A DNA stretch of 38,030 bases, taken from Escherichia coli. GTDB lineage: Bacteria; Pseudomonadota; Gammaproteobacteria; Enterobacterales; Enterobacteriaceae. The DNA is taken from assembly GCF_003334315.1 (NCBI RefSeq), contig NZ_QOWR01000046.1. One strand, written 5' to 3'. Below the pieces are notes generated by a model. It did no database searches, was not told where the DNA came from, and saw only the letters and a list, made by a program, of their open reading frames with translations. This document shows positions 22,466 to 28,664 of the stretch, in pieces. Numbering within the stretch: the first letter of the stretch is position 1; the number at the start of each line of letters is the position of its first letter. The position numbers and the translations under genes were made by a program.

Positions 22466-23269
22466 ATGAACGCATTATTAAGCAATCCCTTTAAAGAACG
22501 TTTACGCAAGGGCGAAGTGCAAATTGGTCTGTGGTTAAGCTCAACGACTGCCTATATGGCAGAAATTGCCGCCACTTCTGGTTATGACTGGTTGCTGATT
22601 GACGGGGAGCACGCGCCAAACACCATTCAGGATCTTTATCATCAGCTACAGGCGGTAGCGCCCTATGCCAGCCAACCCGTGATCCGTCCGGTGGAAGGCA
22701 GTCAACCGCTGATTAAACAAGTCCTGGATATTGGCGCGCAAACTCTACTGATCCCGATGGTCGATACTGCCGAACAGGCACGTCAGGTGGTGTCTGCCAC
22801 GCGCTATCCTCCCTACGGTGAGCGTGGTGTCGGGGCCAGTGTGGCACGGGCTGCGCGCTGGGGACGCATTGAGAATTACATGGCGCAAGTTAACGATTCG
22901 CTTTGTCTGTTGGTGCAGGTGGAAAGTAAAACGGCACTGGATAACCTGGACGAAATCCTCGACGTCGAAGGGATTGATGGCGTGTTTATTGGACCTGCGG
23001 ATCTTTCTGCGTCGTTGGGCTACCCGGATAACGCCGGGCACCCGGAAGTGCAGCGAATTATTGAAACCAGTATTCGGCGGATCCGTGCTGCGGGTAAAGC
23101 GGCTGGTTTTCTGGCTGTGGCTCCTGATATGGCGCAGCAATGTCTGGCGTGGGGAGCGAACTTTGTCGCTGTTGGCGTTGACACGATGCTCTACAGCGAT
23201 GCCCTGGATCAACGACTGGCGATGTTTAAATCAGGCAAAAATGGGCCACGCATAAAAGGTAGTTATTGA
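22466..23269 (+). CDS. rhmA: 2-keto-3-deoxy-L-rhamnonate aldolase (HpcH/HpaI aldolase family)
   Basis: 267 aa from ATG 22466 preceded by TAAGGAACACG. Confidence 0.9.
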
Positions 23270-23309
23270 TATCAAAGGCCCATGGGGATCGGCTGTGGGC
23301 CTGTGTTAA

Positions 23310-23495
23310 TTAGTGGTTATTCGCTGCCAGATCGGCTTCGCTTAGCTGGGTGGCCGCGAGCACCTGGTCACGATCAAAGCCCTGTTCCAGCATGCGCAAA
23401 GCAATTTTAATGGCTTGTTCATGCAAACCTTCTAATTTACCTTCCTGCCAGCCAATTTGATGTCCTTCCTGCCGCAGCCGTTCAGCAATAGTCAT
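23310..23495 (-). CDS. ypaA: Small protein YpaA: free-standing duplicate of the RpnB C-terminal tail (RpnS-like small protein)
   Basis: 61-aa ORF; AAGGAGAG Shine-Dalgarno directly after the rpnB stop codon; protein [19 protein letters not shown]...[16 protein letters not shown] nearly identical to the last 56 residues of RpnB. Confidence 0.75.
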   Translation of the reverse strand: MTIAERLRQEGHQIGWQEGKLEGLHEQAIKIALRMLEQGFDRDQVLAATQLSEADLAANNH

Positions 23496-23691
23496 TAATC
23501 TCTCCTTTTAATGACAGTTCGGAATATCAGCATCAGTGAGTTGGGTTGTCGCCAGCACAATCTCACGTTCAAAGCCCTGCTCCAGCATGCGCAAAGCAAT
23601 TTTAATGGCTTGTTCATGCATACCTTCCTGCCAGCCAATTTGATGCCCTTCCTGCCGTAGCCGTTCAGCAATAGTCATTAATCTCTCCTTT
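23313..23691. repeat. Tandem direct duplication (about 180-195 bp unit) of the rpnB 3' end including its internal SD and ATG; copies at about 23313-23509 and 23511-23691 with a 12-bp indel
   Basis: Long identical runs in both copies, e.g. ccagcatgcgcaaagcaattttaatggcttgttcatgca and ttcagcaatagtcattaatctctcctttt. Confidence 0.85.
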
Positions 23692-24407
23692 TGTAGTGGT
23701 GAACGTTCGGCAATCTCCTCAATAAAACGGGTGAAACGGGAGGTATCGCCGCATTGCAGCAGATAATTAAACAGTGTTTGTAGCTGGCTGTCATTAGTGA
23801 AGCCTCTAACCAAAAGCGTGGTGATCCTGTCGACCATGCCGATTAAATCGCGGTCGCGAATATGCTTTTGAATCAGTTCCAGCAGAGCTATACGCCGATG
23901 TTGCATGATCTCATCGTCAGGTACGATGGTGATATCCACCAACGGAAAAGCTTCGGTGTACAACTGCCGGGCAAGTTGCGGATCGTCAAACTCATCCAGC
24001 CAGTTGAGTGAGTACGGGTAAGGCGAGGTTTCGCCATGATAAAACAGCAACGGCACCACCAGCGGGACTCTGTCATAGCCTTTGTCCAAGTGACGCTGCA
24101 TGGCGGCAGTGGCATAGCGCATTAGCCGAAAAGCCATATTCTTTTCTGCAGAGCTTTGATGTTCAATCACGCAGTAGATATAGCCGTCACCGTCGCTGGT
24201 TTCCACGGACCACAAAACATCCGAGTAGTAAGCGCGTAAACTTTTTTCAATAAAACTAGTGGGTTCCAGGCGTAAGGTTTGCAGGTTGCAAAGCTTGCGC
24301 AGTGGTTCTGGTAAATGTATTTCGAGAAAATCCCGTGCGGTTTCGGGTGTGAACATAAAGGTTTTAAATACCGCATCATGCGGGGAGGAGGTTGTTGATT
24401 CGGTCAT
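23508..24407 (-). CDS. rpnB: Recombination-promoting nuclease RpnB (YhgA-like, Transposase_31 / PD-(D/E)XK family)
   Basis: 299-aa ORF, recognised YfaD/RpnB sequence; internal AAGGAGAGattaATG at 23676-23690 in frame with the C-terminal tail. Confidence 0.88.
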
Positions 24408-24552
24408 GGTTATCCGTCACCTGATATTTATGATGACGCGACATTACGGTTATCCCAGGCCTTTGACATCTGCCAGTTTCAGCCTTTGCGAGACGTTTTC
24501 AGAGGAATTTTCACTGCGTTGCAACGCATACATTGGGCACGGAATCGTGTAC

Positions 24553-24588
24553 GCAAAAATGCCCGGTAACCACATGCTTACCGGGCAT
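24553..24588 (-). terminator. Rho-independent terminator of glpABC (minus strand: atgcccggtaa-gcatgtgg-ttaccgggcat-TTTTT)
   Basis: 11-bp perfect stem, 8-nt loop, followed by five T on the transcribed strand, 12 nt after the glpC stop. Confidence 0.7.
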
Positions 24589-24599
24589 CAGAAAGGAGT

Positions 24600-28664
<4,065 letters not shown>

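Follow-up and report, generated by a model that had tools for sequence, protein, structure and literature searches.

The rpnE–ypaA locus of Escherichia coli: a maintained, duplicated Rpn tail gene that may be an alternative tail module rather than a matched antitoxin

What might a nuclease gene gain from carrying its own C-terminal domain twice, once at the end of its reading frame behind an internal translation start, and once more as a free-standing gene directly after the stop codon? This question is raised by a locus in a 38,030-nt stretch of Escherichia coli DNA (contig NZ_QOWR01000046.1; hereafter the window), the features of which are collected in Table 1. The locus is very probably E. 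coli rpnE (yfaD)–ypaA, and as such a member of the published Rpn-LS toxin/intragenic-antitoxin family.

Table 1. Features of the rpnE–ypaA locus, in window coordinates
Feature	Position	Strand	Basis
rpnE (yfaD) CDS, full-length RpnE-L, 299 aa + stop	23508..24407	-	ORF list, RefSeq rpnE, NF007418
YhgA-like / Transposase_31 domain, residues 8-209, holding the PD-(D/E)XK nuclease core	23781..24386	-	Pfam PF04754
Internal Shine-Dalgarno (SD) sequence AAGGAGAG, 4 nt 5' of the internal ATG	23683..23690	-	sequence; in every sampled allele
rpnE-S, in-frame internal ORF, 56 aa + stop (C-terminal domain of RpnE-L)	23508..23678	-	sequence; published K-12 translation
Four-residue repeat region of the RpnE tail, one unit (WQEG)	23622..23633	-	parsed sequence
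Tandem unit 1, 183 nt, SD to stop of the RpnE tail	23508..23690	-	direct repeats D1 + D2, alignment
Tandem unit 2, 198 nt, SD to stop of ypaA	23310..23507	-	direct repeats, alignment
ypaA SD AAGGAGAG, directly 3' of the rpnE stop TAA (23510..23508)	23500..23507	-	sequence
ypaA (published as rpnE-Ss), free-standing 61-aa tail copy, 82% identical to RpnE-S	23310..23495	-	ORF list, alignment, PF27070
Four-residue repeat region of YpaA, two units (WQEG KLEG), one above the resident RpnE tail	23427..23450	-	alignment, parsed sequence
GC-rich hairpin between convergent ypaA and yfaU, possible shared terminator	23276..23302		terminator-like site, RNA fold

The large gene had been called rpnB in an earlier note on this DNA, a label that needs to be changed to rpnE. 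Thousands of E. coli genomes in RefSeq carry the gene under the name rpnE, between glpC and yfaU, which are also its flanks here, and the protein passes the NCBIfam equivalog NF007418 with 699.5 bits against a cut-off of 583. The locus is present in 5,421 E. coli genomes. In the nomenclature of Kingston et al. (2017) RpnB is YfcI and RpnE is YfaD. The K-12 rpnB gene (yfcI, b2305) lies elsewhere, at 2422649-2423539 and adjoining hisP, and is not syntenic with the gene in the window; its product is 66% identical to the window protein. The DNA of the locus is 99.7% identical to that of K-12, RpnE-S and YpaA do not differ from their K-12 counterparts in protein sequence, and the RpnE tail of K-12 W3110 is likewise identical to the tail in the window.

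The description of the large ORF as an Rpn/YhgA-like PD-(D/E)XK protein holds. Pfam PF04754 matches residues 8-209 with E = 7e-88, and the protein scores 173.5 bits against the TIGR01784 Rpn family, whose cut-off is 52.1. Residues D11, D63, E82 and Q84 are required for RpnA activity, as are R94 and D165 (Kingston 2017; RpnA numbering), and all six of these catalytic positions (6/6) are kept at the same places in RpnE. The in-frame internal start is equally clear: a Shine-Dalgarno sequence AAGGAGAG (23690..23683) is separated by ATTA from an ATG (23678..23676) that lies 56 codons ahead of the TAA stop codon (23510..23508, minus strand). In RpnA, RpnB and RpnC the aligned position is the MTIAE start, and RpnE has the internal ribosome binding site and start of an Rpn-LS gene. 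A scan of positions 23150-24650 for sigma-70 promoters found none, including none specific to ypaA; an internal promoter has been reported from published dRNA-seq, and the window scan did not locate that promoter.

Directly behind the rpnE stop codon the same unit of Shine-Dalgarno sequence, ATG and tail is repeated, as had been claimed: a second AAGGAGAGATTAATG (23507..23493) introduces an ORF of 61 aa, which extends to 23310. The 38-kb window contains this 15-mer two times and no more, against an expectation of zero (100 shuffles, one mismatch allowed). The two units are direct repeats, each beginning with the first base of its Shine-Dalgarno sequence and closing with the last base of its stop codon, which bears out the placing of the duplication junction at the ribosome binding site, with an uncertainty at the unit boundary of 2 nt of AA microhomology (CAA/AAGG versus TAA/AAGG, the slash marking the boundary). 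Identity is 97% over their 5' 72 nt (23438-23509 versus 23621-23692) and 84% over the 102 nt that follow, with one 12-nt indel (KLEG) and one 3-nt indel between the units. The first 19 residues of YpaA are those of RpnE-S, and the YpaA ATG has the same Shine-Dalgarno sequence at the same spacing as the internal RpnE-S start. With its own ribosome binding site just downstream of rpnE, and with no more than 53% identity to the other K-12 tails, ypaA has the attributes of a free-standing RpnSs gene. It starts 12 nt past the rpnE stop and no promoter was duplicated with it; the 12-nt spacing suggests that ypaA is probably co-transcribed with rpnE.

The relationship of the tail to known structures is best seen at the level of the fold. 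In a phmmer search of RpnE against PDB sequences, RpnA-S (7TH0) was only a weak match (E = 0.72); confirmation of the relationship had to come from comparing folds. For YpaA the AlphaFold2 model (mean pLDDT 76) consists of three helices, residues 3-37, 42-49 and 53-58, and its best Foldseek match in the PDB is 7TH0 (probability 1.00, E = 0.046, target-normalised TM 0.72). PF27070 (HTH_Rpn_C) is recorded among precomputed Pfam matches for RpnE and for the exact YpaA protein. Together, the family record, the model and the 7TH0 match assign YpaA, as modelled, the RpnS fold. Our own Pfam scan of YpaA returned no family at E <= 0.001, with a library that is seemingly older than PF27070; DUF4351 (PF14261), the annotation given for separate RpnS genes in some species (Zhong et al. 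2023, PMC10400941), was absent. No PADLOC model matched RpnE or YpaA.

This architecture has already been described. Publications of 2019 and 2023 cover the locus, its internal start, the duplicated small gene and the expression of both: Meydan et al. 2019 (bioRxiv 10.1101/520783) pointed to the internal-start product of rpnE and its resemblance to YpaA, and RpnE-S and YpaA (“RpnE-Ss”) were detected in K-12 by start-site Ribo-seq (Onc112, retapamulin) and by immunoblots of SPA-tagged proteins (Zhong 2023 Fig. 2E, 2H, PMC10400941). Initiation at the internal ATG and at ypaA is therefore established for K-12, and the start-site mapping that the earlier note had proposed as a check has been done, under the names rpnE-ypaA and rpnE-Ss. 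The K-12 locus described in these two papers has the same flanks, internal start and second copy as the window, with no structural difference. The earlier note's view of small C-terminal Rpn proteins as inhibitors with a part in phage defence likewise agrees with an established toxin/intragenic-antitoxin and antiphage family, and, that class being accepted, the result of the scan adds nothing to the literature. A search for work after 2023 on RpnE, YpaA, RpnS and RpnL found nothing relevant.

What is known of the family frames the possible roles of YpaA. Rpn proteins combine a toxin with an intragenic antitoxin, in that the toxicity, SOS induction and DNA cleavage of RpnL are blocked by RpnS, and only by the cognate protein (Zhong et al. 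2023, PNAS, PMC10400941). Toxicity and its neutralisation by the small protein were demonstrated for RpnA, RpnB and RpnP2; RpnA-S and RpnB-S, which are 47% identical, give no cross-protection; and specificity depends on repeat number, one extra repeat having abolished the activity of RpnC-S against RpnC-LS (Zhong 2023, PMC10400941). The rule on repeat mismatch is known from RpnC alone, and RpnE might tolerate a mismatch. Phage protection has been demonstrated only for the plasmid-borne RpnP2-LS, against T-even phages, with pH 8.5 as the condition of that defence. Overexpressed RpnE caused no toxicity, SOS induction or recombination, and it was the sole K-12 paralogue to behave in this way (Kingston et al. 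2017). Because it was inactive in all of these assays, RpnE may be a weak toxin, or no toxin, under laboratory conditions.

In our reading, RpnE-L joins an N-terminal YhgA-like PD-(D/E)XK nuclease domain to a C-terminal three-helix domain, and the strong internal Shine-Dalgarno sequence and ATG (23678) yield the 56-aa RpnE-S, which consists of the latter domain alone. On the model of RpnA, RpnB, RpnC and RpnP2, RpnE-S is expected to bind the matching domain of RpnE-L through its long first helix and so hold the nuclease inactive. The gene ypaA is a tandem duplicate of the exact unit from Shine-Dalgarno sequence to stop codon.

Comparison with related systems places rpnE–ypaA among close relatives. 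RpnA-LS, RpnB-LS and the plasmid RpnP2-LS share with RpnE the PF04754 domain, the same catalytic residues, a three-helix tail with hypervariable four-residue repeats, and an internal Shine-Dalgarno sequence and ATG at the equivalent position (residue 244). They differ in that toxicity, inhibition by RpnS, complex formation and phage defence have been demonstrated for these proteins, whereas RpnE was inactive when overexpressed, and in that, unlike rpnE, they have no second tail copy in K-12. The published rpnC arrangement is built in the same way, with an internal start and, downstream, a free-standing duplicate of the tail, but it involves another paralogue at another locus (rpnC lies between panD and panC) and is absent from K-12. 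In the published phylogeny each downstream copy groups with its own upstream tail, implying independent origins (Zhong 2023, PMC10400941). In mcrB / mcrB-S, too, an in-frame internal start gives rise to a shorter C-terminal isoform, but here the likeness is one of analogy only, since the proteins are unrelated and there is no duplicated free-standing copy. In K-12, mcrB-S is annotated near rpnD.

Variation among strains bears directly on what the second copy might do. We sampled 60 two-copy loci from other E. coli strains, reached through five YpaA alleles and two ‘spread’ listings; the sample is stratified and deduplicated, neither random nor corrected for phylogeny, and 17 of the loci (12 DNA alleles) were inspected in detail, the other 43 being further loci. 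Across about 70 loci the RpnE tail carries 1 to 9 of the four-residue units and YpaA 1 to 7, the hypervariability that marks Rpn-LS genes. The two tails of one locus seldom agree. Repeat numbers are unequal in 59/60 two-copy loci, with unit pairs (RpnE tail, YpaA) of (1,2), (2,5), (4,2), (6,1), (6,2), (6,3), (9,5) and (9,7), and the sole matched locus, L022, is (5,5). This mismatch rate is about that expected from independent variation. If a cognate antitoxin has the repeat number of its toxin's tail, as for RpnC, then YpaA in the window, with two units against one, is not such an antitoxin. The helix 2-3 region is divided just as sharply: in two-copy loci the RpnE tail is always of the type EREIV..DIPN and YpaA always of the type DRD(Q/L)V..LAANNH. 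In the 3' third of the two units the nominal dS is ~1.8, a value that comes from only ~14 synonymous sites. Many alleles fall short of the one in the window by 195 nt, roughly the length of a single tandem unit. Among nine single-copy loci sampled, eight end in DRD(Q/L)V..LAANNH, two of these eight with a broken nuclease domain; the ninth, from a divergent strain (L023), has the DRD core but ends in LAPLSLQ.

The obvious guess, and the one made in the earlier note, is that YpaA, translated independently, is one more cognate antitoxin and works alongside RpnE-S to buffer the resident nuclease. The high identity of the two small proteins, with the same first 19 residues, the identical Shine-Dalgarno sequence at identical spacing and the presence of YpaA protein in K-12 all favor it, as does the suggestion in Koonin's commentary that a second copy adds regulatory flexibility. 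Among the K-12 paralogues RpnE alone has a second small copy, and RpnE alone was not toxic on overexpression; this fits over-buffering without demonstrating it. The population data argue against this guess, however: repeat numbers differ in all but one of the two-copy loci, and helices 2-3 of YpaA are always of the other sequence type from those of the RpnE tail. A mismatch of one repeat abolished RpnC-S function. On the evidence of sequence, cognate buffering looks doubtful, and we regard the extra antitoxin as a somewhat unlikely role for YpaA. That YpaA might instead act in trans on another paralogue, RpnA, RpnB, RpnC or RpnD, is very improbable. Although all Rpn tails have a common N-terminal start and a common fold, YpaA shares 53% identity with RpnA-S and with RpnB-S and 34% with RpnC-S, RpnA-S and RpnB-S do not cross-protect at 47% identity, and a sensitive blastn search of E. 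coli chromosomes with ypaA matched only the rpnE locus (in K-12, the two places being ypaA and the RpnE tail). Least credible of all is the idea that ypaA is a non-functional remnant of the duplication, for which one might cite the partial-pseudogene flag (‘incomplete; missing N-terminus’) that it bears in every PGAP-annotated RefSeq record inspected. Against that flag, the ORF, its Shine-Dalgarno sequence and its ATG are intact in 17/17 two-copy loci checked in detail, the ORF is readable in 43/43 further loci, and the length changes among YpaA alleles are all multiples of 12 nt. Between ypaA and the RpnE tail dN is 0.11 and dS 0.46 (dN/dS ~0.24). Moreover, ribosome initiation and a tagged protein have been seen in K-12, and ypaA is a named gene (b4543) in the literature. 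Judged by these alleles, ypaA is a maintained gene, not debris.

We favor, at a probability of about 0.5, the reading that YpaA is an alternative tail module and not a matched inhibitor of the resident RpnE-L, and that the resident tail can be replaced by recombination. Recombination across the near-identical first 72 nt of the two units would put the YpaA module in place of the resident tail, and such replacement would account for the alleles with a single copy, whose nuclease domain runs into a ypaA-type tail. Zhong et al. 2023 (PMC10400941) mention that fusion has removed the small gene; the main text of that paper contains no comment on repeat matching between YpaA and the RpnE tail, nor on a switching function. 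It is tempting to go further and to see the two-copy locus not as a toxin with two antitoxins but as a device for switching tails, with YpaA as an expressed but non-cognate C-terminal module, though this stronger form is speculative and we consider it unlikely. Recombination would then give the nuclease another tail, altering the specificity of toxin and antitoxin in a single step, and the single-copy alleles with a nuclease domain plus ypaA-type tail, present in many strains, would be its products. If some phage factor is directed against Rpn tails, free YpaA might also serve as its decoy. Whichever role YpaA has, its mismatch with the resident tail offers a cheap and well-defined test of Rpn specificity and of the purpose of a decoupled second copy.

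Searches beyond the chromosome were of two kinds. A tblastn search for a phage-encoded mimic of YpaA among 50,697 phage records matched 8 records and no genuine coliphage homologue, and the candidate was dropped except for a hint from phrog_5416. The best matches in these records were mislabelled Salmonella chromosome contigs, which carry the tail of an rpnA orthologue between feoC and bioH. A plasmid search returned many Rpn tails at <60% identity and nothing bearing on the rpnE–ypaA locus.

The hairpin downstream of ypaA has a minus-strand RNA fold of -12.1 kcal/mol (z = -2.5). Wherever a sampled allele still has yfaU as its neighbour, this hairpin follows the last tail; in one such allele (L008) a single base of it differs.

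The gene that the earlier note called rpnB is clearly rpnE (yfaD), as its annotation, its flanking genes and its NCBIfam equivalog agree. RpnB is by definition YfcI, and RpnE is YfaD (Kingston et al. 2017); K-12 rpnB adjoins hisP, while the window gene lies between glpC and yfaU. By megablast, the locus is present in 5,421 of 5,426 complete E. coli genomes, annotated rpnE, with glpC on one side and yfaU on the other. The window locus is 99.7% identical to that of K-12 W3110 across 1,231 nt, with identical RpnE tail and YpaA proteins, and passes the equivalog cut-off of the rpnE orthologue group (699.5 bits against 583). The feature belongs to the Rpn-LS family. RpnE carries the PF04754 domain (Pfam, E = 7e-88) and, aligned to RpnA, retains D11, D63, E82, Q84, R94 and D165, the residues mutated in RpnA by Kingston et al. 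(2017). A Pfam scan of YpaA gave no match, nor a DUF4351 assignment; PF27070 (HTH_Rpn_C), a newer family, has precomputed matches to the RpnE C-terminus and YpaA alike. The AlphaFold2 model of YpaA (mean pLDDT 76) has a long helix at residues 3-37 and two short helices, and its best PDB match is 7TH0, RpnA-S. No PADLOC model covers RpnE or YpaA.

The earlier note described the sequence itself accurately: an internal Shine-Dalgarno sequence and ATG, a 56-codon tail, and a repeat after the stop that encodes the 61-aa YpaA. The 15-mer spanning the Shine-Dalgarno sequence and ATG occurs at only two sites in the 38 kb, where shuffled sequence predicts none. The two units, each running from Shine-Dalgarno sequence to stop, are tandem direct repeats, 97% identical over the first 72 nt and 84% over the following 102 nt, and their alignment holds one 12-nt indel (KLEG) and one 3-nt indel. 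From the sizes and edges of these units, the duplicated segment therefore begins with the opening base of the Shine-Dalgarno sequence and finishes with the third base of the stop codon, to within an AA microhomology of 2 nt.

Features of the rpnE-ypaA locus, in window coordinates
Feature	Position	Strand	Remarks
rpnE ORF	24407 to 23508	minus	299 codons; ORF list
Internal in-frame start within rpnE, AAGGAGAGATTAATG	ATG 23678..23676	minus	56 codons ahead of the TAA stop
Second copy of the 15-mer	23507..23493	minus	immediately 3' of the rpnE stop; opens ypaA
ypaA ORF	end at 23310	minus	61 codons; ORF list
Unit 1 (tail of rpnE)	23690..23508	minus	183 nt
Unit 2 (ypaA)	23507..23310	minus	198 nt

The annotated rpnE start (window 24408-24430) has only a weak Shine-Dalgarno-like AGGTGA about 11 nt 5' of the ATG, whereas a near-perfect AAGGAGAG stands 4 nt from the ATG at both the internal start (Shine-Dalgarno sequence at 23683-23690) and the start of ypaA. 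This difference agrees with the published greater abundance of the small proteins over the full-length protein.

The locus is already known in exactly the form that the earlier note gave it. With retapamulin Ribo-seq, Meydan et al. (2019) saw peaks at internal, in-frame starts in each of the five rpn genes, and they noted a close likeness between the rpnE internal product and the independent gene ypaA. The 98% identity stated for this pair (bioRxiv 10.1101/520783) was not reproduced: when the K-12-identical sequences are aligned directly, 46 of 56 residues agree (82%), with one 4-residue and one 1-residue indel. For "rpnE-ypaA/rpnE-Ss", Zhong et al. (2023, PNAS) present profiles with Onc112 and with retapamulin (Fig. 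2E), RpnE-S and YpaA on SPA-tag immunoblots (Fig. 2H), and a drawing of the insertion of the second tail copy (Fig. 2I); the start-site mapping that the earlier note proposed has therefore been done. In their phylogeny the downstream copy groups with its own upstream tail; they add that deletion, or fusion to the N-terminal domain, can eliminate the small gene. They define the family as a toxin (RpnL) with an intragenic antitoxin (RpnS), whose inhibition is cognate-specific and tuned by four-residue repeats, and they provide a crystal structure of RpnA-S and evidence of phage defence by the plasmid member RpnP2. Koonin's commentary also mentions a second RpnS copy.

In every PGAP-annotated record inspected, ypaA is flagged as a partial pseudogene. 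The feature (3974-4171 in L001, a locus fetched from another record, with equivalents in other RefSeq records) is marked 'missing N-terminus'; it begins one base past the rpnE stop, so takes in the Shine-Dalgarno sequence, and is not the expressed 61-aa gene. PGAP names RpnE an 'ISNCY family transposase', and PHROGs likewise places it in a "transposase" family; Zhong et al. argued that Rpn proteins are not transposases. Pseudogene status is opposed by the state of the gene. The ORF, Shine-Dalgarno sequence and ATG are kept in 17/17 two-copy loci examined in detail (12 DNA alleles), and the ORF is readable in 43 more. YpaA alleles differ in length always by multiples of 12 nt, dN between the units (0.11) is below dS (0.46), and tagged YpaA was detected in K-12 (Zhong et al. 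2023).

The population structure of rpnE-ypaA goes beyond what the parts of the published accounts at hand describe. Sensitive blastn of E. coli chromosomes with ypaA matched the rpnE locus alone, with 3,151 more places than genomes over 5,421 genomes; if this surplus is made up of second copies, about 58% of the genomes would have two. By megablast, many alleles in complete E. coli genomes lack 195 nt relative to the window, about one repeat unit. Two "spread" listings supplied 24 of the loci that we read, and five YpaA alleles led to 46 more. Repeat counts in the RpnE tail and YpaA are unequal in 59 of 60 two-copy loci and in eight of the nine different combinations. This is about the frequency expected under independent variation, and the two copies therefore show no matching.

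Four-residue repeat units in the two tails of two-copy loci
RpnE tail	YpaA	Loci
1	2	13
2	5	6
4	2	1
5	5	1
6	1	12
6	2	10
6	3	11
9	5	5
9	7	1

Two fixed types of C-terminal helices occur. In two-copy loci RpnE always has the EREIV..DIPN(C/G)(H/Y) type and YpaA always the DRD(Q/L)V..LAANNH type; eight of nine single-copy loci have the full DRD..LAANNH ending. The ninth, in strain CUWW06 (L023:472-1425, a fetched locus), has the DRD core and ends in LAPLSLQ. This divergent rpnE allele, whose tail has 75.7% DNA identity to ypaA, may represent a state near the single-copy ancestor; the strain is without the rhamnonate genes and has yfaY as downstream neighbour. Over their 5' two-thirds the two units hardly differ (dS 0.15), whereas the 3' third is strongly divergent, with a nominal dS of ~1.8 from only ~14 synonymous sites. 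This difference suggests old tail types with homogenised or recombined 5' parts.

RpnE-L, RpnE-S and YpaA are all made. RpnE-L and RpnE-S would be related as toxin and antitoxin, as in the sister systems, where RpnS binds the identical domain of RpnL and blocks the nuclease; in RpnC, a mismatch of one repeat abolishes inhibition. The earlier note took YpaA for a buffering antitoxin, a reading that would fit the observation that RpnE is the only K-12 paralogue without toxicity when overexpressed. However, that non-toxicity has other explanations, and the overexpression construct expressed RpnE-S too. YpaA is probably not a matched inhibitor of the resident RpnE because its repeat number and helix 2-3 type differ from those of the resident tail and the two copies do not co-vary, and we regard buffering as doubtful. 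Action on another Rpn paralogue is unlikely: YpaA is 82% identical to RpnE-S, only 53% to RpnA-S and RpnB-S and 34% to RpnC-S, its gene finds no second locus by blastn in E. coli chromosomes, and RpnS proteins inhibit only their cognate RpnL (Zhong et al. 2023, PNAS). More plausibly, YpaA would be an alternative tail module that could take the place of the resident tail, possibly through recombination over the common 5' 72 nt of both units.

In several degenerate rpnE alleles among the fetched loci the nuclease portion decays while the small tail ORF survives. L036 and L037 (both 472-1374) are single-copy with a broken nuclease domain and an intact 57-aa tail ORF, L039:229-1374 has rpnE in two pieces, and L013:1574-3446 has an IS2 insertion within rpnE. 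At L065:993-1422, codon 9 in the RpnE tail is a stop codon, which leaves a tail-less RpnE and no RpnE-S, with YpaA intact. The K-12 rpnD pseudogene (b4584, L028:13999-14919) has an in-frame stop within the nuclease domain (..AVM*RHIE..) and an intact tail beginning MTIAERIHNDG, and the RpnD small protein has been detected (Zhong et al.). The mcrBC genes lie within a few kb of it, and mcrB-S, also an internal-start product, is annotated there.

Over nearly its full length (window 23313-23495), YpaA matches phrog_5416, a 66-position phage/prophage family of unknown function (E = 3e-9), which hints at free-standing RpnS-like small proteins in phage or prophage genomes. With YpaA as query, tblastn against a phage collection found no convincing coliphage copy. 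The best 'phage' matches were chromosomal contigs of Salmonella wrongly filed among the phages, such as L029:1772-2686 from Salmonella Infantis, the tail of an rpnA orthologue between feoC and bioH. At 62% identity, this tail is closer to YpaA than is E. coli RpnA-S. Elsewhere in the window, the sole match at the Rfam gathering score is naRNA4 (CssrE, RF02564; 34034-34104, plus strand, 76.4 bits), apparently situated between nrdA and nrdB and probably one of the REP-type repeat elements.
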